Positions 10,273 through 34,450 of a stretch of DNA of 42,729 nucleotides are shown piece by piece (the first letter of the stretch is position 1; every line of letters begins with the position of its first letter). A model generated the notes under the pieces. It worked only from the letters and a program-made list of their open reading frames with translations, did no database searches and was not told the origin of the DNA. The stretch comes from a virus (lineage: Duplodnaviria; Heunggongvirae; Uroviricota; Caudoviricetes). The translations under genes and the position numbers were made by a program. The stretch lies in the IMG/VR virus record IMGVR_UViG_2541047951_000003; one strand, written 5' to 3'.

Positions 10273-11172
10273 ATGACAAATACAGCAAAAATACTCAACT
10301 TCTGCAGAGGTAACTTTGCCAAACAGGAGCGTAATGTGGCAGATCTCGATGATGGTTACGCCAGACTATCAAATATGCTGCTTGAGGCTTATTCAGGCGC
10401 AGATCTGACCAAGCGACAGTTTAAAGTGCTGCTTGCCATTCTGCGTAAAACCTATGGATGGAATAAACCAATGGACAGAATCACCGATTCTCAACTTAGC
10501 GAGATTACAAAGTTACCCGTCAAACGGTGCAATGAAGCCAAGTTAGAACTCGTCAGAATGAATATTATCAAGCAGCAAGGCGGCATGTTTGGACCAAATA
10601 AAAACATCTCAGAATGGTGTATCCCTCAAAACGAGGGAAAATCCCCTAAAACGAGGGATAAAACATCCCTCAAATTGGGGGATTGCTATCCCTCAAAACA
10701 GGGGGACACAAAAGACACTATTACAAAAGAAAAAAGAAAAGATTATTCGTCAGAGAATTCTGGCGAATCCTCTGACCAGCCAGAAAACGACCTTTCTGTG
10801 GTGAAACCGGATGCTGCAATTCAGAGCGGCAGCAAGTGGGGGACAGCAGAAGACCTGACCGCCGCAGAATGGATGTTTGACATGGTGAAGACCATCGCGC
10901 CATCAGCCAGAAAACCGAATTTTGCAGGGTGGGCTAACGATATCCGCCTGATGCGTGAACGTGACGGACGTAACCATCGCGACATGTGTGTACTGTTCCG
11001 CTGGGCATGCCAGGACAACTTCTGGTCCGGTAACGTGCTGAGCCCGGCCAAACTCCGCGACAAGTGGACCCAGCTCGAAATCAACCGTAACAAGCAACAG
11101 GCAGGTGTGACAGCCTGCAAACCAAAACTCGACCTGACAAACACTGACTGGATTTACGGGGTGGATTTATGA
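10273..11172 (+). CDS. O: Replication initiator protein O
   Basis: 299 aa, matches lambda O (MTNTAKILNF...); contains the ori iterons. Confidence 0.95.
   Translation: MTNTAKILNFCRGNFAKQERNVADLDDGYARLSNMLLEAYSGADLTKRQFKVLLAILRKTYGWNKPMDRITDSQLSEITKLPVKRCNEAKLELVRMNIIKQQGGMFGPNKNISEWCIPQNEGKSPKTRDKTSLKLGDCYPSKQGDTKDTITKEKRKDYSSENSGESSDQPENDLSVVKPDAAIQSGSKWGTAEDLTAAEWMFDMVKTIAPSARKPNFAGWANDIRLMRERDGRNHRDMCVLFRWACQDNFWSGNVLSPAKLRDKWTQLEINRNKQQAGVTACKPKLDLTNTDWIYGVDL
10621..10750 (+). repeat. ori-lambda: four about 18-19-bp iterons (ATCCCTCAAAACGAGGGA-type) plus adjacent AT-rich region, inside O
   Basis: Direct reading: atccctcaaaacgaggga / aatcccctaaaacgaggga / atccctcaaattggggga / atccctcaaaacaggggga followed by A-rich stretch. 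Confidence 0.85.
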
Positions 11173-14281: not shown

Positions 14282-14418
14282 TGTTTGAGTTTAATATGGC
14301 AGAACTTCTTCGCCACCGCTGGGGGCGTCTGCGCTTATATCGTTTCCTCGGTTCTGTTTTGACCGATTACCGAATACTGAAGAATTACGCCAAAACCCTG
14401 ACAGGAACAGGAGTATGA
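14278..14418 (+). CDS. ylcG: YlcG-like small protein, 46 aa
   Basis: Manual translation [46 protein letters not shown]; overlaps rusA stop; same position as ylcG in DLP12. Confidence 0.5.
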
Positions 14419-14503
14419 AGTCAGAGATAACAATCAACTAATACTGTTTTGTTGATTTTTGCTTGTAATTGGCGTTCTGGTCTGATTTTTGTGGAGTAAG
14501 TTG

Positions 14504-14887
14504 ATGCGTGATATTCAGATGGTTCTTGAGCGTTGGGGTGCGTGGGCGGCTAATAATCATGAAGATGTGACCTGGTCGTCCATTGCCGCCGGTTTTAAGG
14601 GATTAATTCCTTCAAAAGTAAAATCTCGCCCGCAATGTTGTGACGATGACGCGATGATCATTTGCGGGTGCATGGCCCGTCTGAAAAAGAACAACAGCGA
14701 TTTACACGATTTATTAGTAGATTATTATGTATGTGGTATGACATTCATGTCACTGGCAAGTAAGCATTGCTGCTCGGATGGTTATATCGGGAAAAGGTTA
14801 CAGAAGGCTGAGGGCATAATTGAAGGGATGTTAATGGCATTAGATATCCGGTTAGATATGGATATCGTTGCTAATAATTCTAATTGA
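14504..14887 (+). CDS. quuD: Late-gene antiterminator Q (QuuD / phage 21-82 type)
   Basis: [33 protein letters not shown]... matches DLP12 QuuD; Cys-rich zinc-binding region ([12 protein letters not shown]). Confidence 0.85.
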
Positions 14888-14914
14888 TATGCAATTGTTT
14901 ACTAAAAGTTATTA

Positions 14915-14947
14915 AAAATGGGGCGTGGAAACGCCCCCAAAATAAAG
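14915..14947 (-). terminator. Candidate terminator (minus strand) downstream of porin gene
   Basis: GGGGCG-tggaaa-CGCCCC stem (14919-14936) followed on the minus strand by ATTTTTAATAA. Confidence 0.4.
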
Positions 14948-15024
14948 GGTAATATATAACAGAAGGTTTATATAGTAAGAAGCAAGGTAGTGCTTCTAAA
15001 GGAAGTGGCTTGAGGGCTCCACTT

Positions 15025-15064
15025 ATATGTTGCGGAGGCAAAGCCTCCCGCAACATATCTTTTT
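15025..15064 (+). terminator. Candidate rho-independent terminator (plus strand), possible tR'
   Basis: 15-bp near-perfect stem ATATGTTGCGGAGGC/GCCTCCCGCAACATAT followed by CTTTTT; about 140 nt downstream of Q. Confidence 0.45.
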
Positions 15065-15075
15065 CGTAAGTCAGA

Positions 15076-16158
15076 TTAGAACTGATAAACCAGACCTACA
15101 GCGACGATGTCGTCGGTATCAATACCAGCTGTTTTGGTAAACTTACTATCGTCAATTAAGTTGATTTTGTAATCAACAAAAGTGGACATGTTTTTATTAA
15201 AGTAGTAAGTAGCACCGACATCGACATACTTGACTAAGTCTCGGTCACCATGAACACCAAGGTCTTTACCTTTTGACTGAAGGTAAGCAACAGATGGACG
15301 CAGACCGAAGTCAAACTGATATTGTGCTACTGCTTCAAAGTTTTGTGCTTTGTTTGCAATATGGTTATTACCAAAAACGGTCATATTCTGAGTTTCAGAA
15401 TATGTGGTAGCCAGATAGATATTGTTCGCATCATATTTCAGGCCTGCAGCCCATACTTCCGCATTTTTGCCGGAGGCATTGAATTTGCTCTTACCATAGG
15501 CGACCTGACCGTCAGTGCGATCTGATTTAGCATAGGTTGCACCCACGCCGAATCCTTCATACTCATAAGTAGTGGAGAAACCGAAACCATCACCATTGGC
15601 TTCAGTTACGTCAGTGCGGTCATTTTTACCCTGATACTGAGCAGCAAAGTTCAGGCCATCGACCAGACCAAAGAAGTCGTTGTTACGATAAGTTGCAACA
15701 CCAGTAGTGCGACCAGTCATGAACACATCTGTTTGGGTCCAGGTATCACCACCGAATTCTGGCAGAACGTCAGTCCACGCACCGATGTCGTATGCTACAC
15801 CGTAGTTACGGCCGTAATCGATTGAGCCGTAATCACCAAATTTCAGGCCTGCAAATGCAAGACGGGTTTTGTCTTTGGAAGAACCTTGAGATTCAGCACG
15901 GTTGCCTTTGAATTCATATTCCCACTGACCGAAACCAGTCAGTTGATCGTTGATTTGGGTTTCACCTTTGAAGCCAAGACGGGCATAAGTAGTATCACCA
16001 TCATCTGCATCATTAGAGGAGAAGTAGTGCTTGGCATTAACTTTCCCGTATAGATCCAGCTTGTTACTGTCTTTATTATAAATTTCAGCTGCCTGAGCAG
16101 ACATCGCCATCAGTACTGATGCAGCTACAGCAGAAATTGCCACTGTTAATTTTTTCAT
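15076..16158 (-). CDS. nmpC: Outer-membrane general porin (NmpC/OmpD/OmpC family), intact
   Basis: Signal peptide [23 protein letters not shown]; porin hallmarks incl. C-terminal ...VAVGLVYQF; located between Q and the lysis genes on the opposite strand, as nmpC is in DLP12. Confidence 0.9.
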
Positions 16159-16584
16159 TGTACGCCCTTTTTTTGAACTATTATTAAAAAATGATGTCAC
16201 TGCGCGATAAATATTCATCTAATCAATGTGATTATTTCAAGATGTAAGTTTTAGTTTCTCATTTAATTTGTGAAGTAGATCTCTATTTTTATCTGAACCT
16301 TTTCTATCTAATCCTATTCATGGCTCTTGTCTGAACAAAAATAAATCTATTAGCTAATTTATATTAATGGCACTTATTTATAAGTGCTCTATAATTCTTT
16401 AGCTTAATTTAAACAAACTAAAAATAACATTGGAAATTATTAACTGGTTATTTGTTGAAGTTTTCTTATGCATTTGTGGTGGTGTTTTGAACACTCGGTG
16501 GCATTCTCACAAATATCATTTAGTAGTTTACGTACGTAAAAAATTGGTTATGCTGTTAAGAGTGGTTACTTCGTCACACAGCTT

Positions 16585-16617
16585 AAACCCGCCGTCGAGC
16601 GGGTTTTTCCATTTTTT
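16585..16617 (+). terminator. Candidate rho-independent terminator upstream of holin (alternative tR')
   Basis: AAACCCGC-cgtcga-GCGGGTTT stem followed by TTCCATTTTTT. Confidence 0.4.
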
Positions 16618-16746
16618 GAGTCTCGATATTAGCTGATAACCCAATACCTGAGTTATTCACTGACTCCGAATCTGTTACGTTTCTGCCTTTATTGCGATAC
16701 GTAGTATCCCCTTAATTTACACCCGCTTTGTCTGCGAGGTGGGGTT

Positions 16747-16962
16747 ATGAAATCCATGGATAAGTTAACAACGGGTGTCGCCTATGGTACCTCAGCAGGT
16801 AGTGCCGGGTACTGGTTTTTACAGTTGCTCGATAAAGTCACGCCCTCACAGTGGGCGGCAATAGGTGTGCTGGGTAGCCTGGTATTTGGCCTGCTGACGT
16901 ACCTGACAAACCTTTATTTCAAGATTAAAGAAGATAAGCGCAAGGCTGCGAGAGGTGAATAA
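16747..16962 (+). CDS. S: Pinholin S21 (dual-start motif MKSM)
   Basis: 71 aa, matches phage 21 S / DLP12 EssD ([28 protein letters not shown]...). Confidence 0.9.
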
Positions 16963-17459
16963 TGCCTCCATCATTACGAAAAGCCGTTGCTGCTGCTATT
17001 GGTGGCGGAGCAATTGCTATAGCATCAGTGTTAATCACTGGCCCAAGTGGTAACGATGGTCTGGAAGGTGTCAGCTACATACCATACAAAGATATTGTTG
17101 GTGTATGGACTGTATGTCACGGGCATACAGGAAAAGACATCATGCTCGGTAAAACGTATACCAAAGCAGAATGCAAAGCCCTCCTGAATAAAGACCTTGC
17201 CACGGTCGCCAGACAAATTAACCCGTACATCAAAGTCGATATACCGGAAACAATGCGCGGCGCTCTTTACTCATTCGTTTACAACGTGGGTGCTGGCAAT
17301 TTCAGAACATCGACGCTTCTTCGCAAAATAAACCAGGGCGATATCAAAGGCGCATGTGATCAGCTACGTCGCTGGACATATGCTGGCGGTAAGCAATGGA
17401 AAGGTCTCATGACTCGTCGTGAGATTGAGCGTGAAATCTGTTTGTGGGGTCAGCAATGA
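16962..17459 (+). CDS. R: SAR endolysin (lysozyme R21 type)
   Basis: 165 aa; N-terminal Gly/Ala-rich SAR segment ([20 protein letters not shown]) followed by lysozyme domain; matches R21/RrrD. Confidence 0.9.
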
Positions 17460-17917
17460 ACAGAGTAACCGCGATTATCTCCGCTCTGGTTATCTGCATC
17501 ATCGTCTGCCTGTCATGGGCTGTTAATCATTACCGTGATAACGCCATTACCTACAAAGCCCAGCGCGACAAAAATGCCAGAGAACTGACGCTGGCGAACG
17601 CGGTAATTACTGACATACAGATGCGTCAGCGTGATGTTGCTGCGCTCGATGCAAAATACACGAAGGAGTTAGCTGATGCGAAAGCTGAAAATGATGCTCT
17701 GCGTGATGATGTTGCCGCTGGTCGTCGTCGGTTGCACATCAAAGCAGTCTGTCAGTCAGTGCGTGAAGCCACCACCGCCTCCGGCGTGGATAATGCAGCC
17801 TCCCCCCGACTGGCAGACACCGCTGAACGGGATTATTTCACCCTCAGAGAGAGGCTGATCACTATGCAAAAACAACTGGAAGGAACCCAGAAGTATATTA
17901 ATGAGCAGTGCAGATAG
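17456..17917 (+). CDS. Rz: Rz i-spanin
   Basis: [43 protein letters not shown]... matches lambda Rz; ATGA overlap with R. Confidence 0.85.
17676..17858 (+). CDS. Rz1: Rz1 o-spanin lipoprotein (embedded in Rz, +1 frame)
   Basis: 60 aa, lipobox VVGC, Pro-rich; matches lambda Rz1. Confidence 0.75.
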
Positions 17918-17948
17918 AGCTGCCCATATCGATGGGCAACTCATGCAA

Positions 17949-18242
17949 TTATTGTGAGCAATACACACGCGCTTCCAGCGGAGTATAAATGCCTAAAGTA
18001 ATAAAACCGAGCAATCCATTTACGAATGTTTGCTGGGTTTCTGTTTTAACAACATTTTCTGCACCACCACAAATTTTTGCTGCATCGACAGTTTTCTTCT
18101 GCCCAATTCCCGAAACGAAGAAATGATGGGTGATGGTTTCCTTTGGTGTTACTGCTGTAGGTTTGTTTCCAACAGTAAACGTCTGTTGAGCACATCCTGT
18201 AATAAGCATTGCCAGAGCGGCAGAAAACAACATTTTTTTCAT
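17949..18242 (-). CDS. bor: Bor lipoprotein (serum-resistance lysogenic-conversion protein)
   Basis: MKKMLFSAALAMLITGCAQQTF... 97 aa from ATG 18242, matches lambda Bor/BorD. Confidence 0.85.
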   Translation of the reverse strand: MKKMLFSAALAMLITGCAQQTFTVGNKPTAVTPKETITHHFFVSGIGQKKTVDAAKICGGAENVVKTETQQTFVNGLLGFITLGIYTPLEARVYCSQ

Positions 18243-18408
18243 CTTATTATCCTGCATTGTTAAAAACGGCAGAATCCTATGTGACAACAATTAAACGATA
18301 GTTAAATGGATTGATGAAAATTAAAACTACACAGGTGGGCTCAGACTATTGGAGGAAGTTGGGGACACTCAGAATCCTGTGGAATGAAATAAACCGGTCT
18401 ATCCGTCC

Positions 18409-18413
18409 ATTAC
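18409..18413. repeat. IS2 target-site duplication (ATTAC), left copy
   Basis: 5-bp ATTAC directly flanks both IS2 ends (18409-18413 and 19745-19749). Confidence 0.8.
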
Positions 18414-18424
18414 TGGATTTGCCC

Positions 18425-19330
18425 CTATATTTCCAGACACCTGTTATCACTTAACCCATTACTGGCTTGCTGCCGCAGATATTCCCGTGGCGAGCGATAA
18501 CCCAGTGCACTATGCGGATGCCATTCGTTATAATGCTCGAACGCCTCTGCAAGGTTCTTTGCTGCCGTTAACCCGTCTGGTTTGGGCATGACACTGATGT
18601 AGTCACGCTTTATCGTTTTCACGAAGCTCTCTGCTATGCCGTTACTCTCCGGACTCCGCACCGCCGTGCTCTTCGGTTCAAGCCCCAACATCCGGGCAAA
18701 CTGCCGTGTTTCATTAGCCCGGTAGCATGAACCATTATCCGTCAGCCACTCTACTGGAGACGCCGGAAGCTCGTTGCCGAAGCGGCGTTCCACCGCTCCC
18801 AGCATGACGTCCTGTACTGTTTCACTGTTGAAGCCGCCCGTAGTGACCGCCCAGTGCAGTGCCTCACGGTCACAGCAGTCCAGCGCGAACGTGACTCGCA
18901 GTTTTTCTCCGTTATCACAGCGGAACTCGAACCCGTCAGAGCACCATCGCTGATTACTTTCTTTCACAGCCACTCTGCCTGTATGTGCCCGTTTCGATGG
19001 CGGTACAGCAGGTTTTCGCTCAAGCAACAGCGCATTCTGGCGCATGATCCGGTAAACACGTTTGGCATTGATCGCAGGCATACCATCAAGTTCTGCCTGT
19101 CTGCGAAGCAGCGCCCATACCCGACGATAACCATACGTGGGCAGCTCTCCGATAACATGGTGTATACGGAGAAGCACATCCGTATCATCAGTGTGACGAC
19201 TGCGGCGGCCATCCATCCAGTCATCGGTTCGTCTGAGAATGACGTGCAACTGCGCACGCGACACCCGGAGACAACGGCTGACTAAGCTTACTCCCCATCC
19301 CCGGGCAATAAGGGCGCGTGCGCTATCCAC
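18425..19330 (-). CDS. insD: IS2 transposase OrfB (InsD, DDE integrase core)
   Basis: 301 aa, matches IS2 InsD; overlaps insC in -1 frame (programmed frameshift fusion typical of IS3 family). Confidence 0.9.
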
Positions 19331-19653
19331 TTTTTTGCCCGTCCATATTCAACGGCTTCTTTGAGGAGTTCATTTTCCATCGTTTTCTTGCCGAGCAGGC
19401 GCTGGAGTTCTTTAATCTGCTTCATGGCGGCAGCAAGTTCAGAGGCAGGAACAACCTGTTCTCCGGCGGCGACAGCAGTAAGACTTCCTTCCTGGTATTG
19501 CTTACGCCAGAGAAATAACTGACTGGCTGCCACACCGTGTTGCCGGGCAACGAGGGAGACCGTCATCCCTGGTTCAAAGCTCTGCTGAACAATTGCGATC
19601 TTTTCCTGTGTGGTACGCCGTCTGCGTTTCTCCGGTCCTAAGACATCAATCAT
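19288..19653 (-). CDS. insC: IS2 OrfA (InsC, HTH)
   Basis: [52 protein letters not shown]... matches IS2 InsC (121 aa). Confidence 0.9.
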
Positions 19654-19744
19654 CTGCTCTCCAATGACTAGTCTAAAAACTAGTATTAAGACTATCACTT
19701 AAATAAGTGATATTGGTTGTCTGGAGATTCAGGGGGCCAGTCTA

Positions 19745-19749
19745 ATTAC
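19745..19749. repeat. IS2 target-site duplication (ATTAC), right copy
   Basis: Identical 5-mer to 18409-18413 immediately outside the IS2 terminus. Confidence 0.8.
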
Positions 19750-20058
19750 CCTTTTAGCTGCGCTGTATCGTCGCCGTATTCCCGCATTAACCATGACCGT
19801 AGCCCGACGGGGAATTCCTTCTGCGTGAGTGTGCGGGAATAATTAAAAACGATGCACACCGGGTTTTTACCGCGTTAATGATTCGCGGGTTTATCCCGGT
19901 GCGATGGTGGAAGAAACAGGAAGCTGTATTACAGAAAGTGCTACTACTGTATCCCGATGCGATGTATGTAATGTGAGTCAGATAATGGCACAGGATGTGG
20001 TGATGTGGCAGTCTGGAACACAGGATATATTGTCAGAATAAGACCCGTAGGAATAAAA

Positions 20059-20385
20059 ATGAAAAGACGCCTTTTACTACTTTTTCTGTTATCTGTCCTG
20101 GCAGTGGGATGCTCGCAGCAAAAAGCTGATGAGCCCCGGCAATTAGTGACGGTGTATCCACGATATCCGGAATATGCTGCAGCAAATTATATCAAGGGGC
20201 TGGTTGAGGTTAAGTTCGATATTGGTGCTGATGGGACTGTGACACGGATCGTTTTTCTCCGCTCAGAGCCTCATAATTTGTTTCGTGATGAAGTGGTGAA
20301 GGCCATGGCGAAATGGCGATTTGAAAAGAATCGCCCCTGTCAGGGAGTGAAGAGACAATTTATCTTTACGCCGTCACGTCCTTGA
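20059..20385 (+). CDS. Lipoprotein with TonB-C-terminal-like domain (hypothetical)
   Basis: Signal peptide with lipobox (MKRRLLLLFLLSVLAVGC); mature part shows 'P-x-YP-x-A...G-x-V-x-V-x-F-x-I...DG-x-V' pattern reminiscent of TonB_C fold. Confidence 0.55.
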   Translation: MKRRLLLLFLLSVLAVGCSQQKADEPRQLVTVYPRYPEYAAANYIKGLVEVKFDIGADGTVTRIVFLRSEPHNLFRDEVVKAMAKWRFEKNRPCQGVKRQFIFTPSRP

Positions 20386-20507
20386 TGCTTCCAGGTAGAG
20401 AGGGGCTGGAAGCAGGAGAAAAATGAAAGAGCCAGCGGTTATATTTTTGTCATGGCTGACGAGGAATGATGGAAGAAGGCGTTGTATGCCACACAACGCC
20501 TCACTGT

Positions 20508-20687
20508 TCATTTCTTCTTTTTCTCTGGTGGAACCCGATGAATAAGAGTTGCACTGGTTTCCGATGAGATGGCGATATACTCGGGCAAAGTATGCTGGCA
20601 GTTTTCCAACTGGTCAAAAATACCTGCTCTCGTCTGTTGCAATGCCTGCAGCATGCGGCGGCAATGCGCCTTGCTTTTACTAACCAT
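20508..20687 (-). CDS. Hypothetical small basic protein, about 59 aa (start uncertain)
   Basis: Part of track ORF 20508-20861; internal ATG chosen to avoid overlap with upstream secreted-protein ORF. Confidence 0.3.
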   Translation of the reverse strand: MVSKSKAHCRRMLQALQQTRAGIFDQLENCQHTLPEYIAISSETSATLIHRVPPEKKKK

Positions 20688-20748
20688 CTTTCCTTCCTCT
20701 ATCAGTCGCTGCGTGAACTCATCATGGAATACCAGGTAAATGCGGATG

Positions 20749-21000
20749 TTATCGGTTTTGGCTACGCAGCATAGTACAAAACGGACAGGTGCATCCCGGG
20801 ACGGGGGAGGCGTCACATGTCCCTGTGATGGTTGTTCCGGGTAATGTACTGTGTGGGGCATAAAAATGTCCGATAATTTTACTTTCTACCGCAGTTAGTT
20901 GATTCGTTGGTCCTGGTAGCACATTGGGCGAGGATTTAAATGCCAGGCAACTGAAGGATGATGTCGCAAGGGAGATAGCGAGAATATTTCTGATTTTCAT
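20749..21000 (-). CDS. Hypothetical secreted Cys-rich small protein, 83 aa
   Basis: ATG at 21000; signal peptide MKIRNILAISLATSSFSCLA; five Cys in the C-terminal third. Confidence 0.45.
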   Translation of the reverse strand: MKIRNILAISLATSSFSCLAFKSSPNVLPGPTNQLTAVESKIIGHFYAPHSTLPGTTITGTCDASPVPGCTCPFCTMLRSQNR

Positions 21001-21148
21001 TTGATGATGCCTCTGTGTGAAATGACGGTAAACGACGCACTTGTGCCGGCACATAATAGCAAGCACCATAATAGATCAGATTCGATTCTTGCTGTAAGTG
21101 ATAATTATTCTCGTTTTCGGGTCCTTTCCGTCGATCCAACAGGTTACG

Positions 21149-21160
21149 GGGCGGCGACCT
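21149..21160 (+). other. cosN cohesive-end sequence GGGCGGCGACCT (12-nt overhang site)
   Basis: Exact lambda cohesive-end 12-mer followed by CGCGGTTTTTCACTATTTATGAAAATTTT, about 180 bp upstream of nu1. Confidence 0.8.
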
Positions 21161-21336
21161 CGCGGTTTTTCACTATTTATGAAAATTTTTCAGGGAAAAT
21201 CGTGTCGGTACTTCTCGAATATAACTTTTTGTTTTTTTTAATATTGCATCCGTAAAGGTCCGACATGAAAGTGTCCGAAAATGCCTTTTTCTGGCGTTTT
21301 CATGTCGGGCCTTGTATTTGATAATGGGTTGTTTTC

Positions 21337-21885
21337 ATGAAGGTTAATAAAAAGAGGCTTGCCGAAATTTTCAACGTGGACCCGCGGACGATTGAACGCT
21401 GGCAGTCTCAGGGACTCCCTTGCGCCTCCAAAGGTAGTAAGGGCATTGAATCTGTATTTGATACTGCCATGGCAATTCAGTGGTATGCGCAGAGGGAAAC
21501 TGATATCGAAAACGAAAAGCTCCGCAAAGAACTGGCCGATTTGCGTGCGGCAGCGGAGTCAGATTTACAACCCGGCACCATTGACTATGAACGCTACCGG
21601 CTCACAAAAGCGCAGGCAGATGCGCAGGAACTGAAAAATGCCCGTGAAGACGGAGTAGTGCTGGAAACTGAACTGTTTACCTTCATTCTGCAACGTGTGG
21701 CACAGGAGATTTCGGGGATACTTGTGCGTGTGCCGTTGACATTACAGCGTAAATATCCGGACATTTCACCATCACACCTTGATGTGGTGAAAACTGAAAT
21801 CGCGAAAGCCTCCAATGTTGCAGCTAAGGCCGGTGAAAACGTGGGCGGGTGGATCGATGATTTCAGACGCGCAGAAGGCAGCTAA
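21337..21885 (+). CDS. nu1: Terminase small subunit (Nu1-like)
   Basis: 182 aa; [28 protein letters not shown]... parallels lambda Nu1 (winged-HTH N-terminus, 'IENEKLRKE', '[29 protein letters not shown]'). Confidence 0.9.
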
Positions 21886-23785
21886 TGCAGCCGGTGCGAT
21901 AGCTACAGGGCTTTTATCTCTCATTATTCCTGTTCCACTGACGACAGTTCAGTGGGCCAATAAACATTATTACCTTCCTAAAGAGTCGTCTTATACCCCG
22001 GGGCGATGGGAAACACTGCCGTTTCAGGTTGGCATCATGAACTGTATGGGCAACGATCTGATTCGCACGGTTAACCTGATTAAATCTGCCCGTGTTGGTT
22101 ATACAAAGATGTTGCTGGGAGTGGAGGCTTATTTTATTGAGCATAAATCACGCAACAGCCTTCTTTTTCAGCCCACGGACTCAGCTGCTGAAGATTTTAT
22201 GAAATCTCATGTTGAGCCAACGATAAGGGATGTTCCTGCATTGCTGGAGCTGGCTCCATGGTTCGGAAGAAAACACCGCGATAATACGCTCACCCTGAAG
22301 CGTTTTTCCTCCGGTGTGGGGTTCTGGTGTCTGGGTGGTGCGGCAGCAAAAAACTACCGTGAAAAATCCGTGGATGTGGTCTGTTATGACGAGCTTTCCT
22401 CGTTCGAACCGGATGTTGAAAAAGAGGGTTCGCCAACCCTGCTGGGGGATAAACGTATTGAGGGCTCTGTATGGCCAAAATCCATTCGCGGCTCGACGCC
22501 TAAAATCAAAGGCTCCTGCCAGATCGAAAAAGCCGCTAACGAGTCGGCACACTTCATGCGTTTTTATGTGCCCTGTCCGCACTGTGGGGAGGAGCAGTAT
22601 CTGAAATTTGGCGATGATGCCTCGCCTTTCGGTCTTAAGTGGGAGAAGAATAAGCCAGAAAGTGTTTTCTACCTTTGTGAGCATCATGGCTGTGTGATCC
22701 ATCAGTCTGAGCTTGACCAGAGTAACGGGCGGTGGATCTGTGAAAACACGGGCATGTGGACTCGTGACGGTCTGACATTTTTCAGCGCCGCGGATAATGA
22801 AATTCCGCCGCCGCGCTCCATCACTTTCCATATCTGGACGGCGTACAGTCCGTTCACCACCTGGGTACAGATTGTCTATGACTGGCTGGATGCACTGAAA
22901 GATCCCAACGGCCTGAAAACCTTTGTGAACACCACGCTGGGCGAGACCTGGGAAGAGGCTGTGGGCGAAAAACTCGATCACCAGGTGCTGATGGATAAGG
23001 TTGTGCGTTACACGGCGGCGGTGCCTGCCCGGGTGGTTTATCTGACGGCGGGCATTGACTCGCAGCGAAACCGTTTTGAGATGTATGTCTGGGGATGGGC
23101 TCCGGGAGAGGAAGCCTTTCTGGTGGATAAAATCATCATTATGGGGCGTCCCGATGAGGAAGAGACGCTGTTACGTGTGGATGCGGCGATCAACAAAAAA
23201 TACCGCCATGCAGACGGAACCGAAATGACCATTTCCCGTGTCTGCTGGGACATCGGGGGGATCGATGGCGAAATCGTTTATCAGAGGTCAAAAAAACACG
23301 GTGTTTTCCGGGTGCTGCCGGTAAAAGGCGCATCTGTCTATGGCAAGCCGGTGATCACCATGCCAAAAACCCGCAATCAGCGGGGCGTGTATCTGTGTGA
23401 AGTGGGGACGGACACCGCAAAAGAAATTCTCTATGCCCGTATGAAAGCCGATCCCACGCCTGTGGATGAAGCCACGTCGTATGCTATCCGTTTTCCTGAT
23501 GATCCGGAGATTTTTTCGCAGACAGAGGCGCAGCAACTGGTCGCGGAAGAGCTTGTGGAGAAGTGGGAAAAAGGAAAGATGCGTCTGCTGTGGGATAACA
23601 AAAAGCGGCGTAACGAAGCGCTGGACTGCCTGGTGTATGCCTACGCGGCATTACGTGTGTCCGTGCAACGCTGGCAGCTTGATCTGGCTGTACTGGCAAA
23701 ATCCCGGGAAGAAGAGACGACCCGGCCAACCCTTAAAGAACTGGCAGCGAAGCTGTCCGGAGGAGTGAATGGTTACAGTCGCTGA
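21857..23785 (+). CDS. A: Terminase large subunit (gpA)
   Basis: Strong match to lambda gpA throughout (e.g. [17 protein letters not shown], Walker motifs, [17 protein letters not shown]); start ATG 21857 overlapping nu1. Confidence 0.95.
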
Positions 23786-23975
23786 ACTGCAGGCGCTGCG
23801 TCAGGCGCGCCTTGATTTATTAACCGGTAAACGGGTGGTGTCTGTCCAGAAAGATGGTCGCAGAATTGAATATACGGCGGCTTCTCTGGATGAGCTTAAC
23901 CGGGCGATCAATGATGCGGAGTCGGTACTGGGGACAACCCGGTGTCGCCGTCGTCCGCTGGGAGTGAGGTTATGA
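23769..23975 (+). CDS. W: Head-tail joining protein W
   Basis: 68 aa; LTGKRVVSVQKDGRRIEYTAAS parallels lambda gpW. Confidence 0.85.
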   Translation: MVTVAELQALRQARLDLLTGKRVVSVQKDGRRIEYTAASLDELNRAINDAESVLGTTRCRRRPLGVRL

Positions 23976-25564
23976 AACGAACGCCTGTCCTGATTGATGT
24001 GAACGGCGTTCCGCTTCGTGAGAGTCTCAGCTACAACGGGGGCGGTGCAGGATTTGGCGGGCAAATGGCTGAGTGGTTGCCACCGGCGCAGAGTGCCGAT
24101 GCGGCCCTGCTGCCCGCGTTGCGTCTGGGGAATGCCCGGGCAGATGATCTGGTGCGCAATAACGGAATAGCGGCTAATGCGGTGGCTCTGCATAAGGATC
24201 ACATTGTCGGGCATATGTTTCTGATCAGCTACCGTCCGAACTGGCGCTGGCTGGGGATGCGGGAGACCGCAGCAAAAAGCTTTGTCGATGAGGTGGAGGC
24301 GGCCTGGTCGGAATACGCCGAAGGGATGTTTGGCGAGATCGACGTGGAAGGAAAACGCACGTTCACGGAATTTATCCGTGAAGGTGTGGGCGTTCATGCG
24401 TTTAACGGCGAAATCTTTGTGCAGCCGGTCTGGGATACGGAAACCACGCAGTTATTCCGTACGCGTTTTAAAGCCGTGAGTCCGAAACGGGTGGACACGC
24501 CTGGACACGGTATGGGGAACCGTTTTCTGCGGGCCGGTGTGGAGGTCGATCGATATGGCCGTGCCGTCGCGTACCATATCTGTGAGGATGATTTTCCGTT
24601 CTCTGGTAGTGGACGATGGGAACGGATCCCGCGTGAACTTCCCACCGGGCGTCCGGCCATGCTGCATATTTTCGAGCCGGTGGAGGACGGGCAGACCCGT
24701 GGGGCTAATCAGTTTTACAGCGTCATGGAACGGCTGAAGATGCTCGATTCCCTGCAGGCAACACAGCTTCAGTCGGCCATAGTGAAGGCGATGTATGCAG
24801 CGACGATTGAAAGTGAACTTGATACCGAAAAGGCCTTTGAATATATCGCCGGCGCGCCACAGGAGCAGAAGGATAATCCGCTTATTAATATTCTGGAGAA
24901 GTTTTCCAGCTGGTATGACACGAATAACGTGACACTGGGCGGTGTCAAAATTCCGCACCTTTTCCCTGGTGATGATCTGAAACTACAGACTGCGCAGGAT
25001 TCAGACAATGGATTTTCTGCGCTTGAACAGGCGCTGCTGCGGTATATCGCCGCCGGTCTTGGCGTTTCCTACGAACAGTTGTCCCGTGATTACTCGAAGG
25101 TCAGTTACTCAAGTGCCCGCGCCTCCGCCAATGAGTCGTGGCGCTATTTTATGGGGTGGCGAAAATTTATTGCGGCCCGGCTGGCCACGCAGATGTTTTC
25201 CTGCTGGCTGGAAGAGGCACTTCTTCGGGGGATTATTCGTCCGCCACGGGCACGTTTTGATTTTTATCAGGCGCGATCAGCCTGGTCACGGGCAGAGTGG
25301 ATTGGTGCCGGAAGAATGGCCATTGACGGGCTCAAGGAAGTCCAGGAATCAGTGATGCGCATTGAGGCCGGACTGAGCACGTATGAGAAAGAGCTGGCGC
25401 TGATGGGCGAGGATTATCAGGACATTTTCCGCCAGCAGGTCAGGGAATCTGCTGAGCGGCAAAAAGCCGGACTCTCACGTCCGGTGTGGATAGAGCAGGC
25501 GTATCAGCAGCAGATAGCGGAGAGTCGCAGGCCGGAAGAGGAGACAACACCACGTGAGACGTAA
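23972..25564 (+). CDS. B: Portal protein (gpB)
   Basis: About 530 aa with lambda gpB-like sequence; ATGA overlap with W. Confidence 0.9.
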   Translation: MKRTPVLIDVNGVPLRESLSYNGGGAGFGGQMAEWLPPAQSADAALLPALRLGNARADDLVRNNGIAANAVALHKDHIVGHMFLISYRPNWRWLGMRETAAKSFVDEVEAAWSEYAEGMFGEIDVEGKRTFTEFIREGVGVHAFNGEIFVQPVWDTETTQLFRTRFKAVSPKRVDTPGHGMGNRFLRAGVEVDRYGRAVAYHICEDDFPFSGSGRWERIPRELPTGRPAMLHIFEPVEDGQTRGANQFYSVMERLKMLDSLQATQLQSAIVKAMYAATIESELDTEKAFEYIAGAPQEQKDNPLINILEKFSSWYDTNNVTLGGVKIPHLFPGDDLKLQTAQDSDNGFSALEQALLRYIAAGLGVSYEQLSRDYSKVSYSSARASANESWRYFMGWRKFIAARLATQMFSCWLEEALLRGIIRPPRARFDFYQARSAWSRAEWIGAGRMAIDGLKEVQESVMRIEAGLSTYEKELALMGEDYQDIFRQQVRESAERQKAGLSRPVWIEQAYQQQIAESRRPEEETTPRET

Positions 25565-28580: not shown

Positions 28581-28964
28581 ATGGCAACAAAAGAAGAAAA
28601 TCTGAATCGTCTTCGTCAACTGGCTGACCTGCTGGGGCGCGAGGCGGATATGTCGGGGAGTGCTGCGGATATTGCTCAACGTGTGTCTGAGTGGGAAGAG
28701 GAGCTTGCTGTTTCCCCGGAGGGCATTATGCACTCTGATGAGAGCGGGGCTGATCAAAATCACACAGACGATGGTGAGCAGTTGAACAACACGGATGCTC
28801 CGGATGATGTTAAAGCCGTCCGGGTACGGAAGTGCCTGCAAGTAATGGGGTATTGCCCGGAGACAGGTCGTCCCGTTGAGCTGGCGTTACGGGGTATGCG
28901 TGTTCTGGTGCCATCATCACTGGCAACGGCCATGATACAGCACGGAACGGCTGAATATGCGTGA
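28581..28964 (+). CDS. FI: DNA-packaging protein FI-like
   Basis: Position between E and FII; ATG 28581 with GGAGG RBS; acidic middle region as in lambda FI. Confidence 0.65.
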   Translation: MATKEENLNRLRQLADLLGREADMSGSAADIAQRVSEWEEELAVSPEGIMHSDESGADQNHTDDGEQLNNTDAPDDVKAVRVRKCLQVMGYCPETGRPVELALRGMRVLVPSSLATAMIQHGTAEYA

Positions 28965-29310
28965 TTTTCAGAATGCCTTTGATGCTGCCCTCGCCGGGGT
29001 AGACAGTACGATCGTTGAAGTGATGGGGCTCTGTGCGCAGTTCACCTCGGGGGCACAGTGTGGCAGCGAAGTTCAGGGGGTTTTTGATGATCCGGAGTCG
29101 CTGGGGTTTGCCGGTGGCGGGGTCCGTATTGAAGGAAGCAGCCCGTCATTATTTGTGCGGACGGATACGGTTCGTGCCGTGCGGCGTGGTGACACGCTGA
29201 CCATTAATGGTGAGATATTCTGGGTGGATCGTGTTTCTCCGGATGACGGGGGCAGCTGTTATCTCTGGCTCAACCGTGGTCAACCACCCGCAGTTAACCG
29301 GCGACGATAA
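28957..29310 (+). CDS. FII: Head-tail connector protein FII
   Basis: 117 aa; C-terminal 'WVDRVSPDDGGSCYLWLNRGQPPAVNRRR' matches lambda gpFII. Confidence 0.9.
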   Translation: MRDFQNAFDAALAGVDSTIVEVMGLCAQFTSGAQCGSEVQGVFDDPESLGFAGGGVRIEGSSPSLFVRTDTVRAVRRGDTLTINGEIFWVDRVSPDDGGSCYLWLNRGQPPAVNRRR

Positions 29311-29325
29311 ACGCAGGGTGAAATT

Positions 29326-29859
29326 ATGGCGATAAAAGGGCTTGATCAGGCGATTGACAATCTGAGCCGGGTTCGTAAAAACGCCATTCCGGCGGCTTCA
29401 GCAATGGCCATTAACCGCGTGGCCACAACGGCGATTAATCAGTCTTCATCACAGGTTGCCCGGGAGACAAAGGTTCGCCGGAAACTGGTTAAGGAACGGT
29501 CCAGACTGAAACGGGCGACGGTCAGAAATCCGAATGCCAGAATTATCGTTAACCGCGGTGATCTCCCTGTGATTAAGCTGGGGATCAGGATGCTGGGGCG
29601 TCGCCCGAACAGCATACTTAAAGCCGGTCAGCATCGGTATCAGCGGGCATTTATTCAGAGATTAAAAAATGGTCGCTGGCATGTCATGCAGCGTGTGGCC
29701 GGGAAAAACCGTTACCCCATTGATGTGGTGAAAATCCCGATGGCGGCCCCACTGAAACAGGCATTTGATGAGAATGTTGACCGTATCCGGCGTGAACGCC
29801 TGCCTAAAGAACTGGCATACGCGCTGAAACAACAACTGAGGATTGCAATAAAACGATGA
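29326..29859 (+). CDS. Z: Tail completion protein Z
   Basis: MAIKGLDQAIDNLSR... and C-terminal NGRWHVMQRVAGKNRYPIDVVKIPMA match lambda gpZ. Confidence 0.85.
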   Translation: MAIKGLDQAIDNLSRVRKNAIPAASAMAINRVATTAINQSSSQVARETKVRRKLVKERSRLKRATVRNPNARIIVNRGDLPVIKLGIRMLGRRPNSILKAGQHRYQRAFIQRLKNGRWHVMQRVAGKNRYPIDVVKIPMAAPLKQAFDENVDRIRRERLPKELAYALKQQLRIAIKR

Positions 29860-30251
29860 AACACACTGACATTCGTGCCGCAGTGCTGGATGCACTCGAG
29901 CAGCATGAACACGGGGCGACGCTGTTTGATGGTCGCCCCGTTGTTTTTGACGAAGAGGATTTTCCTGCGATCGCGGTTTATCTGACGGATGCAGAGTATA
30001 CCGGTGAAGAGCTGGATGCAGATACCTGGCGGGCCACGCTGCATATTGAGGTGTTTTTACCGGCACAGGTACCGGATTCAGAGCTTGATCAGTGGATGGA
30101 AAGCCGGATTTACCCGGCGATGACCGCGATCCCGGCACTGGCAGGACTGATTACCACGATGGTTACGCAGGGCTATGAGTATCGTCGTGATGACGATATG
30201 GCGTTATGGAGTTCTGCAGATCTGACTTATTCCATTACATACGAGATGTGA
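29856..30251 (+). CDS. U: Tail terminator protein U
   Basis: 131 aa, high similarity to lambda gpU ([28 protein letters not shown]...). Confidence 0.9.
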
Positions 30252-30258
30252 GGACGAT

Positions 30259-31011
30259 ATGGCAACACCAAATCCCCTTGAGCCGGTAAAAGGTGCCGGT
30301 ACCACTCTGTGGGTTTACAACGGCAAGGGTGATGCTTATGCAAACCCGTTGTCAGACGATGACTGGCAGCGACTGGCTAAGGTGAAGGATCTGACGCCGG
30401 GCGAGATGACGGCAGAATCCTACGATGATAACTACCTGGATGATGAAGACGCGGACTGGACCGCGACCGGGCAGGGGCAGAAATCTGCAGGTGATACCAG
30501 TTTTACGCTGGCCTGGAAACCGGGAGAGGAAGGCCAGAAAGGGCTTATAGGCTGGTTTGAAAGCGGCGATGTCCGGGCCTATAAAATCCGTTTTCCGAAT
30601 GGCACGGTGGATGTGTTTCGTGGCTGGGTCAGCAGTATCGGTAAGGCCGTGACGGCGAAAGAAGTGATCACCCGCACGGTGAAAGTCACTAACGTGGGTA
30701 AACCTTCTGTAGCGGAAGAACGCAGCAAAATTACGCCGGTCAGTGCGATTAAGGTGACGCCGACATCCGGTACGGTGGCAAAAGGGAAAACAACCACCCT
30801 GACGGTTTCTTTTGAGCCGGAAAGTGCAACCGACAAGACGTTCAGAGCGGTTTCCGCCGATCCGTCGAAAGCCACCATTAGTGTGAAAGATATGACAATT
30901 ACGGTAAACGGCGTGGCGACAGGTAAGGTGCAGATCCCTGTGGTGAGCGGAAATGGTCAGTTCGCCGCAGTGGCTGAAGTCACCGTTACTGAAGCGGGCG
31001 CTGCAGGGTAA
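30259..31011 (+). CDS. V: Major tail tube protein V (with C-terminal Ig-like domain)
   Basis: 250 aa, similar to lambda gpV. Confidence 0.9.
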
Positions 31012-31024
31012 ACGGAGGTAATAC

Positions 31025-31456
31025 ATGTTTCTGAAAACAGAACAATTTGAATATAACGGTGTGTCTGTCACGCTTTCCGAATTGTCTGCGCTGCAGCGTA
31101 TCGAGCATCTTGCCCTCCTGAAACGGCGTGCAGAACAGGCAGAATCCTGCGGCAACCTGCAGGTAAGCGTGGAAGATCTCGTCAGAACCGGCGCGTTTCT
31201 GGTGGCGATGTCCCTGTGGCATAACCATCCACAGAAAACGCAGTCACCGTCAATGAATGAGGCCGTGATGAAGATAGAGCAGGAAGTGCTCACCACCTGG
31301 CCTGCCGATGCCATTGCCCGGGCGGAAGACGTGGTGTTGTGCCTGTCCGGGATGATCGAAGCTGTTCGTCCGGATACTGATATTACTGAAGTGGCGAAAA
31401 ATAACACGCTGACTGATGATGATTTTTCTGCGGGAAAGTCTTCGACGGCGAGCTGA
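31025..31456 (+). CDS. G: Tail assembly chaperone G
   Basis: MFLKTEQFEYNGVSVTLSELSALQRIEHLALLKRRAEQAES... matches lambda gpG. Confidence 0.9.
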   Translation: MFLKTEQFEYNGVSVTLSELSALQRIEHLALLKRRAEQAESCGNLQVSVEDLVRTGAFLVAMSLWHNHPQKTQSPSMNEAVMKIEQEVLTTWPADAIARAEDVVLCLSGMIEAVRPDTDITEVAKNNTLTDDDFSAGKSSTAS

Positions 31457-31896
31457 ACTTTGCCCTCAGACTGGCGCGTGAGATGGGGAGACCCGACTGG
31501 CGCGCCATGCTTGCCGGGATGACATCCACCGAATATGCCGACTGGCACCGTTTTTACCGCACGCATTATTTTCAGGATACCCAGCTGGATATGCATTTTT
31601 CCGGGCTGACGTACGCTGTACTCAGCCTGTTTTTTTGCGATCCGGATATGCATCCCTCTGATTTCAGTCTGCTTGTCCCCCGGCATGAGGAAGAGCAGGT
31701 GGAGAGGCCGGATGAGGACAAAATGCTGATGCAGAAAGCGGCAGGACTTGCCGGAGGCGTCCGGTTCGGTGGGGACGGAGGGCGCGATATTTTATCGTCT
31801 GCGGATGTGGCGGATGTCATGGTGGATGATGCCGCATTAATGATGGCTTCAGCGGGGATTCCGGGAGGTGTGAGATATGTCCCAGCCGGTTGGTGA
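31025..31896 (+). CDS. T: Tail assembly chaperone G-T fusion via programmed -1 ribosomal frameshift at slippery heptamer GGGAAAG (31432-31438)
   Basis: Slippery G_GGA_AAG near the end of G; -1 frame ORF (track 31483-31896) encodes lambda T-like sequence (GRPDWRAMLAGMTSTEYADWHRFY...). Confidence 0.8.
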
Positions 31897-34450
31897 TCTT
31901 GTTATTGACCTGAGTCTGGATGCTGTCCGTTTCGATGAGCAGATGAGCCGGGTAAGGCGTCATTTTTCAGGTCTGGATACCGACGCCAGAAAAACCGCCA
32001 GTGCTGTTGAACAGGGCCTGAGCCGCCAGGCGCTGGCTGCACAAAAAGCCGGGATTTCCGTCGGGCAGTATAAAGCGGCCATGCGAACCCTGCCCGCACA
32101 GTTTACGGATATCGCCACGCAGCTTGCCGGTGGTCAGAATCCCTGGTTGATCCTGCTGCAACAGGGCGGTCAGGTGAAGGACTCCTTCGGCGGGATGATC
32201 CCCATGTTCAGGGGGCTTGCCGGTGCGATCACCCTGCCGATGGTCGGGGTCACCTCGCTGGCGGTGGCGACAGGTGCGCTGGCGTACGCCTGGTACCAGG
32301 GCGACGCCACGCTTTCAGAATTTAATAAAACGCTGGTCCTTTCCGGCAATCAGGCCGGACTGACTGCCGATCGTATGCTGACGCTCTCAAGAGCCGGGCA
32401 GGCAGCAGGGCTGACGTTTAACCAGGCGAGAGAGTCACTGGCAGCCCTGGTGAATGCCGGTGTGCGTGGTGGTGAACAGTTTGATGCCATCAACCAGAGT
32501 GTCGCGCGTTTTGCGTCTGCATCCGGTGTGGAGGTGGATAAAGTCGCTGAAGCCTTCGGGAAGCTGACCACTGACCCGACGTCGGGACTGATGGCGATGG
32601 CGCGCCAGTTCCGTAACGTGACGGCAGAGCAGATTGCGTATGTTGCACAGCTGCAGCGTTCCGGAGACGAGGCCGGGGCATTGCAGGCGGCGAACGATAT
32701 CGCCACGAAAGGCTTTGATGAGCAGACCCGTCGCCTGAAAGAAAACATGGGAACACTGGAGACCTGGGCGGATAAAACAGGGAAGGCATTCAAATCGATG
32801 TGGGATGCCATTCTGGATATCGGTCGTCCGGAATCCTCAGCGGATATGCTCGCCAGTGCGCAGAAGGCATTTGATGAGGCGGATAAAAAATGGCAGTGGT
32901 ACCAGAGCCGGAGCCAGCGCCGGGGAAAGACCTCCTCTTTTCGTGCGAACCTTCAGGGGGCATGGGATGACCGGGAAAATGCCCGTCTGGGTCTGGCAGC
33001 GGCCACGCTGCAGTCGGATATGGAAAAAGCCGGTGAACTGGCGGCAAGGGACAGGGCTGAGCGTGAGTCGTCACAGCTGAAGTATACCGGAGAGGCGCAG
33101 AAGGCGTATGAGCGCCTGCAGACGCCGCTGGATAAATATACCGCCCGTCAGAAAGAGCTGAATAAGGCCCTGAAAGACGGAAAAATCCTGCAGGCGGATT
33201 ACAACACGCTGATGGCGTCGGCAAAAAAGGATTATGAATCGACGCTGAAAAAGCCGTCAGGTGTGAAGGTGTCTGCCGGTGAGCGCCAGGAAGACCGGGC
33301 GCATGCAGCCCTGCTGGCGCTTGAAACCGAGCTCAGGACGCTGGAAAAACACAGCGGTGTGAATGAGAAAATCAGCCAGCAGCGCCGGGATTTATGGGAA
33401 GCGGAAAGTCAGTATGTGGTCCTGAAAGAGGCCGCCACGAAACGGCAGTTATCTGAGCAGGAAAAATCCCTGCTGGCTCATGAGAAAGAGACGCTGGAGT
33501 ACAAACGCCAGCTGGCTGAGCTGGGAGACAAGATTGAACACCAGAAGCGGCTGAATGAGCTGGCACAGCAGGCGGCGCGGTTTGAACAGCAGCAAAGCGC
33601 GAAGCAGGCGGCAATCAGCGCAAAAGCCCGCGGCCTCACCGACCGTCAGGCGCAGCGGGAGTCGGAAGAGCAGCGCCTTCGTGAGGTGTACGGTGATAAT
33701 CCGGCTGCGCTGGCGAAGGCCACATCGGCACTGAAGAACACCTGGTCTGCGGAGGAGCAGCTTCGTGGAAGCTGGATGGCCGGGATGAAGTCCGGCTGGG
33801 GAGAGTGGGCGGAAAGTGCGACGGACAGTTTTTCGCAGGTTAAAAGTGTGGCCACGCAGACCTTTGACGGTATTGCACAGAATATGGCGGCGATGCTGAC
33901 CGGCAGTGAACAGAACTGGCGCAGCTTCACCCGTTCCGTGCTGTCCATGATGACAGAAATTCTGCTTAAGCAGGCAATGGTGGGGATTGTCGGGAGTATC
34001 GGCAGCGCTATTGGCGGGGCTGTTGGTGGCGGCGCATCCGCGTCAGGCGGTACAGCCATTCAGGCCGCTGCGGCGAAACTCCATTTTGCAACCGGAGGAT
34101 TTACGGGAACCGGCGGCAAATATGAGCCAGCGGGGATTGTTCACCGTGGTGAATTTGTCTTCACGAAGGAGGCAACCAGCCGGATTGGCGTGGGAAATCT
34201 CTACCGGCTGATGCGCGGCTATGCCACCGGCGGTTATGTCGGTGGCACCGGAAGTCCGGCGCAAATGCGGCGTTCAGAGGGTATCAGGTTTGAGCAGAAC
34301 AACAACGTGGTGATTCAGAACGACGGTACGAATGGTCTGCCAGGTCCACAGATGATGAAGGCGGTGTATGACATGGCCCGCAAGGGTGCCCGTGATGAAA
34401 TCCAGGCACAGATGCGCGATGGTGGTCTGTTCTCCGGAGGTGGACGATGA
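31877..34450 (+). CDS. H: Tail tape-measure protein H
   Basis: 857 aa, similar to lambda gpH across its length, including C-terminal ...GGLFSGGGR. Confidence 0.95.
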   Translation: MSQPVGDLVIDLSLDAVRFDEQMSRVRRHFSGLDTDARKTASAVEQGLSRQALAAQKAGISVGQYKAAMRTLPAQFTDIATQLAGGQNPWLILLQQGGQVKDSFGGMIPMFRGLAGAITLPMVGVTSLAVATGALAYAWYQGDATLSEFNKTLVLSGNQAGLTADRMLTLSRAGQAAGLTFNQARESLAALVNAGVRGGEQFDAINQSVARFASASGVEVDKVAEAFGKLTTDPTSGLMAMARQFRNVTAEQIAYVAQLQRSGDEAGALQAANDIATKGFDEQTRRLKENMGTLETWADKTGKAFKSMWDAILDIGRPESSADMLASAQKAFDEADKKWQWYQSRSQRRGKTSSFRANLQGAWDDRENARLGLAAATLQSDMEKAGELAARDRAERESSQLKYTGEAQKAYERLQTPLDKYTARQKELNKALKDGKILQADYNTLMASAKKDYESTLKKPSGVKVSAGERQEDRAHAALLALETELRTLEKHSGVNEKISQQRRDLWEAESQYVVLKEAATKRQLSEQEKSLLAHEKETLEYKRQLAELGDKIEHQKRLNELAQQAARFEQQQSAKQAAISAKARGLTDRQAQRESEEQRLREVYGDNPAALAKATSALKNTWSAEEQLRGSWMAGMKSGWGEWAESATDSFSQVKSVATQTFDGIAQNMAAMLTGSEQNWRSFTRSVLSMMTEILLKQAMVGIVGSIGSAIGGAVGGGASASGGTAIQAAAAKLHFATGGFTGTGGKYEPAGIVHRGEFVFTKEATSRIGVGNLYRLMRGYATGGYVGGTGSPAQMRRSEGIRFEQNNNVVIQNDGTNGLPGPQMMKAVYDMARKGARDEIQAQMRDGGLFSGGGR

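Follow-up and report, generated by a model that had tools for sequence, protein, structure and literature searches.

The traits described for IS2 comprise inverted repeats of 41 and 42 bp, an A6G window, an OrfAB transposase, and a junction promoter, Pjunc, with an obligatory 17-nt spacer; OrfA represses another promoter of the element, PIRL, which is weak (Lewis et al., PMC3299598). The right inverted repeat (IRR) supplies the −35 element of fusion promoters at ampC and acrEF (PMC9330008). The polarity of IS2 reflects Rho-dependent terminators, and the element serves as a Rho-termination cassette in the galEP3 (gal3) reporter (PMC8141534). [quoted passage not shown] IS elements in lambdoid prophages are commonplace. 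Among records with IS2, PhiR11_1 (recorded with a K-12 propagation host) has an intact copy after stf, Stx2c_JNE082642 has one inside stx2A that disrupts the coding sequence, and the muskdeer13-4 prophage has one between ylcG and Q. These sites differ from the one described here, and none of the three records has IS2 in the spacer between the iss and TonB-C genes. Neither of the two phage records, PhiR11_1 (IS2 after stf) and Stx2c_JNE082642 (IS2 inside stx2A), offered a direct functional analogue.

The stretch of DNA analyzed here (the window, 42,729 nt) is a lambda/phage-21-like prophage of the type that close relatives carry beside icd, and is near-identical to the prophages of S88 and CEA212U up to ∼28 kb; relative to S88, the tail module at 28.7–33 kb has been replaced (79–82% identity). 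The integrase gene is followed by the exo/bet/gam, repressor, O/P, and nin regions and then by Q; beyond Nu1 lie the terminase, head, and tail genes as far as J (36853–40335), and then an ORF for a 688-aa fiber. The features that bear on the insertion are the following:

1–1143, minus strand: integrase, with an identical counterpart at the icd site of S88 and CEA212U.
14489–14887: Q, Pfam Phage_antitermQ, 81% identical to the Q of 933W and 100% identical to that of phage ev207.
15076–16158, minus strand: porin accessory gene, 1.1 kb.
16747–17917: S/R/Rz lysis genes.
17949–18242, minus strand: iss/bor lipoprotein gene, Pfam Lambda_Bor (1e-30), named iss in RefSeq, 100% identical to phage 21 bor.
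20059–20385, plus strand: accessory lipoprotein gene with a TonB C-terminal domain, Pfam TonB_C (7e-13), annotated in phage 21, divergent from iss.
21119–21148, plus strand: cosQ (GGGTCCT) and the phage 21 right cohesive end, with the cosN cut at ∼21148, 1404 bp to the right of IS2.
21337–21885, plus strand: Nu1 terminase small subunit gene, Pfam Phage_Nu1 (1e-80), the first morphogenetic gene downstream.

The element occupies an AT-rich spacer of ∼325 bp between the divergent iss/bor and orf45/TonB-C genes. The iss start codon lies 171 nt past the IRR tip, and iss and the IS2 genes are co-directional; on the other side, a 45-codon ORF (orf45) that precedes the TonB-C gene starts 155 nt from IS2. 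IS2 interrupts no feature annotated in phage 21 and leaves coding sequences and cos elements intact, unlike in the stx2A case. Rfam families were searched for in 14400–21400 and none was found.

The element itself and its parts were located as follows:

18414–19744, minus strand (IRL-to-IRR sense): complete IS2, 1331 bp, by alignment to K-12 IS2A.
18414–18454, minus strand: IRR, 41 bp, with 40 of 41 positions as in K-12 IS2A, the mismatch being IS2 position 1305.
19703–19744, minus strand: left inverted repeat (IRL), 42 bp, with 41 of 42 positions as in K-12 IS2A and the first 41 nt identical.
18425–19330, minus strand: insD/orfB, 301 aa, an open ORF with the rve DDE catalytic domain (Pfam).
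19288–19653, minus strand: insC/orfA, 121 aa, helix-turn-helix regulator and N-terminal part of OrfAB (ORF and Pfam).
19330–19336, minus strand: slippery A6G window at which a programmed −1 frameshift yields the OrfAB transposase, retained at IS2 position 409.

Global alignment to IS2A of K-12 MG1655 (NC_000913.3, 381260–382590) was colinear over the full length, all 1331 of 1331 columns, with 97.6% identity, 32 substitutions, and no indels. Read on the plus strand, IS2 opens at 18414 with TGGATTTGCCCC (IRR), or in a longer read TGGATTTGCCCCTATATTTCCAGACA, and closes at 19744 with GGGGCCAGTCTA (IRL), or in a longer read TCTGGAGATTCAGGGGGCCAGTCTA (the IRL in reverse complement); with IRR at the left and IRL at the right, the sense strand of IS2 is thus the minus strand. 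InsC is 100% identical to K-12 InsC1 and matches HTH_Tnp_1 (1.8e-19), whereas InsD differs from K-12 InsD1 by eight conservative-looking amino acid substitutions, contains no stops, and matches rve (4.8e-19), rve_3 (9e-18), and HTH_21, every one of these Pfam matches being above the cut-off. The DDE triad motifs WCSD, LTD, and AES were located in InsD, and D132, D198, and E234 were assigned as the putative catalytic residues from these motifs and the usual DDE spacing. The open frame that holds InsC extends over 19288–19698 on the minus strand, of which 19288–19653 is the ATG-initiated part; insC and insD overlap and are both open, which is the two-ORF, −1 frameshift layout of IS2, and PGAP labels the near-identical copy in CEA212U as an intact “IS3 family transposase, programmed frameshift.” TGGAAA in the IRR (18435–18430, facing outward) and TAGACT in the IRL are both intact; TGGAAA was taken as the −35 element of Pjunc after the minicircle junction had been reconstructed and scanned for the best match. 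By all sequence criteria tested, the element is IS2 (IS3 family, IS2 group), and this copy is intact and probably still active. It resembles K-12 IS2A in its 1331 bp, InsC, A6G window, inverted repeat lengths, and 5-bp duplication, and differs from it in the substitutions given above, in being of an ExPEC-type variant, and in its new insertion site. The variant is common: 646 records reach at least 99% identity, with 3–8 places per genome (median, 4), and copies in hundreds of ExPEC-type genomes are 99.6–99.9% identical to the one in the window.

Direct repeats flank the element and were confirmed both by reading the sequence and by script:

18409–18413, no strand: left target-site duplication, ATTAC, 5 bp.
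19745–19749, no strand: right target-site duplication, ATTAC, 5 bp.

The corresponding empty site was present in the closest relatives. In S88 and in phage 21 (OL657228) it reads CCGTCCATTACCCTTTTAGC, with a single ATTAC and 100% identical flanks; bor and its upstream sequence in phage 21 are 100% identical to window 17949–18413, and the last 1404 bp of that phage are 100% identical to window 19745–21148, up to cosN, whereas its Q/porin segment differs from that of the window. Icd prophages of the S88/IHE3034/UM146 type likewise have the empty site with one ATTAC, and S88 is identical to the window in both flanks. When a 4-kb query around IS2 was used, many genomes matched over 2665 bp instead of 4001 with 100% identical flanks, the IS2-free matches including S88, IHE3034, UM146, APEC O18, and ATCC 11775. 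Occupied and empty sites thus differ by exactly 1336 bp, that is, 1331 + 5, and because of this exact difference and the single ATTAC of the empty site, a chance repeat is excluded. The first-pass annotation had read the element as a complete IS2 with intact insC and insD, set between perfect 5-bp ATTAC repeats by simple transposition; comparison with the reference element (1331 against 1331 bp, both ORFs open, both inverted repeats kept) upheld this reading, and the single-copy site that it had anticipated in related prophages was found in S88 and phage 21. The best explanation, and very probably the correct one, is a recent, simple copy-out/paste-in insertion of an intact IS2 into the iss–TonB-C spacer of an icd-type prophage. 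To judge from its sequence, the event is an ordinary, textbook simple insertion of a known element, with nothing beyond known kinds.

The IS2 genes lie on the strand opposite to S/R/Rz/Nu1/A...J, and the element is downstream of Q and S/R/Rz and upstream of Nu1, which is the placement expected of a polar insertion. The original description of the site, on the path of the late transcript between bor and the cos/terminase genes and antisense to late transcription, agrees with the Pfam map, with the phage 21 right end at 21148, and with IS2 genes on the minus and late genes on the plus strand. The consequence that the first-pass annotation drew from it was a likely polar effect on head and tail gene expression that may render the prophage defective. 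Such an effect would mean that antisense IS2 brings about Rho-dependent termination of late transcription before Nu1, so that neither heads nor tails are made, and this reading has several properties of the element in its favor. The plus strand of IS2, read by late transcription, contains 29.4% C vs. 23.8% G and six rut-like 80-nt windows that are C-rich and G-poor, whereas no such 80-nt windows were found on the IS2 sense strand, and the GC skew is negative across IS2, unlike in the flanks. Rho sensitivity is thus expected of the strand that late transcription reads. Antisense IS2 presumably corresponds to the classical polar orientation I, with which this C/G asymmetry agrees. The insertion also triples the part of the late transcript that is without translation on the sense strand, from ∼650 nt in phage 21 (antisense bor included) to ∼1990 nt with IS2, although this longer stretch may be regarded as a change of degree, not of kind.

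A polar insertion also presupposes a polymerase that is sensitive to termination, and from knowledge of the family the polymerase in question would not be of this type, the late operon being Q-dependent and a gene with the Phage_antitermQ domain being present. In galEP3, as in the window, IS2 stands between a promoter and downstream genes, presumably in the same relative orientation; however, gal is transcribed by unmodified polymerase, whereas the late transcript of the window is Q-antiterminated. Q-modified polymerase passes terminators of both classes and suppresses polarity (the documented cases are those of lambda and 82/21, and the window has a 933W-type Q), native late transcripts of the phage 21 type already cross antisense iss, and no intrinsic terminator was predicted on the plus strand inside IS2. 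The late transcript would also traverse the 1.1-kb antisense porin gene, provided that pR′ lies directly after Q. The promoter was not located by homology to 933W, the sequence downstream of Q being unrelated; one candidate for pR′, TTGCTA-16-TGCAAT, overlaps the Q stop codon, and another, ATGGCA-17-TATAAT, lies at 16367–16395, with a strong terminator at 16585–16606. On induction, Q-modified RNA polymerase would be expected to read through the 1.3 kb of antisense IS2 as it does through antisense iss. Such read-through, with head and tail gene expression at most modestly reduced and not abolished, is the outcome that we consider probable; if antitermination by Q were leaky, part of the transcripts could conceivably be lost to Rho, given the C-rich strand and the length of untranslated RNA. 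A polar effect that renders the prophage defective is doubtful on known biology and is at best a minority possibility, and the prophage is not to be called defective from IS2 alone.

At the level of length and order, the ORF map has long ORFs of the expected sizes and arrangement from int to J and stf, and near-identical relatives are annotated with the full lambdoid gene set. In the S88 prophage, attL and attR (icd and the duplicated fragment of icd) are ∼47.3 kb apart, a length that includes the sitABCD cargo; on this basis, the IS2-bearing prophage, the right end of which lies outside the window, was estimated at ∼48.7 kb. The capacity for packaging is limited in lambda, and ∼48.7 kb is near lambda’s own length; a genome of this size should be packageable, and a packaging limit on the phage is unlikely. 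For the lysogen the insertion would be near-neutral. In the long term, IS2 could act as portable homology and as a transposition hot spot, and may seed deletions or rearrangements in the prophage.

A second alternative is that IS2 has been kept for a regulatory, adaptive reason, altering the expression of iss, by read-out or a fusion promoter, or that of the TonB-C gene, which IS2 would cut off from elements upstream. IS2 points in the direction of iss transcription, and its IRR, a known donor of −35 elements, faces the iss upstream region, in the activating orientation known from the ampC and acrEF fusion promoters and from Pjunc. The fusion promoter at ampC was reportedly described by Jaurin and Normark in 1983. 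In addition, a second, independent IS2 was found 112 bp closer to iss in three genomes, AH21I008 (blood, Australia), ESBLEC_HM50 (rectal swab, Malaysia), and AHB22 (blood, United Kingdom). It has the same orientation as the window IS2 and is flanked by the duplication GATAG, which corresponds to window 18297–18301. When the same flanks were searched with IS2 reversed, no opposite-orientation copy was found in the iss–cos stretch, and the search returned only the IS2 upstream of Q in muskdeer13-4.

The junction in the window nevertheless argues against a fusion promoter. Pjunc, in the reconstructed minicircle junction, reads TGGAAA-17-TAGACT (8/12 matches), whereas the window has TGGAAA (18435–18430)-17-TAATGG (18412–18407), and TAATGG is not plausible as a usable −10 element by its sequence; the outward-facing −35 hexamer of the IRR and the 17-nt spacing are thus without a −10-like flank, and no Pjunc-like fusion promoter is present. 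Promoter scans gave no site that reached the scan threshold (9/12) at either the window junction or the GATAG-site junction, and a scan for a native iss promoter gave no clear one. PIRL, for its part, is weak and under OrfA repression, as noted above. Both the ATTAC and the GATAG target fall where the GC content of the region is lowest (37.5% GC), which makes target preference an adequate explanation, and two independent events are too few to separate a hot spot from selection. Retention of IS2 for a regulatory benefit is accordingly judged improbable. For the source strain in particular, a regulatory effect on iss, which could act through weak read-out alone, is unlikely, and it appears quite improbable that IS2 repeatedly targets the iss spacer of ExPEC icd prophages with a bias in orientation and that read-out from it adaptively raises Iss. 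If that were true, a fusion promoter in the GATAG-site lineage, or weaker read-through in the window lineage, would raise the serum-survival lipoprotein Iss, and the insertions would be adaptive regulatory mutations and not neutral hits or prophage-inactivating lesions.

The simple insertion preferred here was also assessed by its distribution. A 702-nt query reconstructing the empty site found the uninterrupted junction in 817 of 5,426 complete Escherichia coli genomes, whereas the occupied ATTAC site was found in one complete genome only (CEA212U, France) and in one IMG/VR contig of 7.7 kb that is 99.77% identical to window 17755–25452. The IS2 copies of CEA212U and the window are one base apart, at 19522, and the difference is synonymous. 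Three of the four genome matches with 100% coverage were rejected as carriers of the shared insertion, their IS2 being at a different site; in AH21I008, a fixed-offset comparison with the window diverges from 18303 onward, which places IS2 there at another site. IS2 is multi-copy, and misjoins classically arise at repeats, yet misplacement by the assembler has a negligible probability here and was rejected, given the perfect 5-bp duplication, the exact 1336-bp difference from empty sites, and the recurrence of both junctions in the independent CEA212U genome and the independent IMG/VR contig. Judged from these comparisons, the insertion is real, recent, and lineage-restricted.

For annotation, the label IS2 is appropriate, and the duplication and the empty site can be recorded alongside it. 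The prophage exists without IS2, with IS2 at the ATTAC site, and with IS2 at the GATAG site, which makes a clean natural test case; the trio is suited to measuring how far a 933W-type Q suppresses IS2 polarity and what effect IS2 has on the virulence-associated iss. At the GATAG site, the junction reads TGGAAA-17-TATCGT, with 8/12 matches (below the scan threshold of 9/12), and TATCGT lies ∼50 nt upstream of the iss ATG, which would give a leader of ∼46 nt if transcription started ∼7 nt after TATCGT. With spacing and match count equal to those of Pjunc, this junction would recreate a Pjunc-like promoter aimed at iss.

A second, independent IS2 insertion, flanked by a GATAG target duplication, lies near iss in related prophages, at a site corresponding to window 18297-18301, 112 bp to the left of the window's own IS2 site and in the same orientation as the window's IS2. 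It was present in three genomes (L001 20899-22238, L011, and L012), from Australia (AH21I008), Malaysia (ESBLEC_HM50), and the UK (AHB22). At its right inverted repeat (IRR), the junction reads TGGAAA-17-TATCGT, with ∼50 nt separating the -10-like hexamer from the iss ATG downstream, and is a candidate fusion promoter for iss, resembling Pjunc, the IS2 minicircle-junction promoter. Two further lambdoid prophages carried IS2 elsewhere: the related prophage of E. coli muskdeer13-4 has a sense-oriented copy that separates ylcG from Q (L009 1592-2820), another IS2 on a lambdoid transcription path, here the delayed-early pR transcript; in Stx2c_JNE082642 it lies within stx2A near the 3′ end, antisense to that gene (L014 3501-4831), yielding a StxA fusion with IS2-derived terminal residues, with stxB downstream.

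Many genomes had mosaic breakpoints rightward of the window's IS2 site, at distances of ∼10 bp (window ∼19759) and 110-150 bp, in the stretch between bor and cos that holds two small genes:
19904-20041, orf45, which accompanies the lipoprotein gene
20059-20385, plus strand, small lipoprotein gene with a TonB C-terminal domain
The lipoprotein is identical to that of phage 21. Farther right, the head-tail joining and tail-shaft module (28700-33070) was only 79-82% identical to those of S88, CEA212U, and AH21I008, whereas the prophage outside it was >99% identical to the same three genomes; judging from these identities, the module is a mosaic replacement, and the IS2-bearing left arm is therefore found with two different tail modules. 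A cluster of eight SNPs relative to the same genomes, at 22000-23000 in the terminase large-subunit gene, sits in an otherwise near-identical 28 kb and may be a small recombination patch.

The region from Q to the holin contained an antisense accessory gene and two potential late-promoter sites:
14869-14937, late-promoter candidate TTGCTA-16-TGCAAT, overlapping the Q stop and followed by a GC hairpin (14920-14937)
15076-16158, minus strand, full-length OmpC/NmpC-like porin gene (Pfam Porin_1, 1.9e-151)
16367-16395, late-promoter candidate ATGGCA-17-TATAAT, with a strong intrinsic terminator ∼200 nt further on (16585-16606)
The Q-porin-holin layout is the same as that of quuD-nmpC-essD in the K-12 DLP12 prophage. 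Comparison of the window with 933W revealed no homology of the sequence 3′ of Q to the 933W pR′ region. The late promoter could be at either site (14869-14937 or the 16367-16606 region), the second of which, with its terminator, is arranged like lambda 6S.

Replication gene O (10273-11172, 299 aa) was intact in the window, CEA212U, and AH21I008, whereas that of S88 is annotated as frameshifted. As cargo, the S88 icd prophage (L007) also has the iron/manganese transporter genes sitABCD (S88 1224155-1227604). They sit past the window's right end, flanked on one side by the tail fibre genes and on the other by attR, which is a duplicate of the 3′ part of icd.
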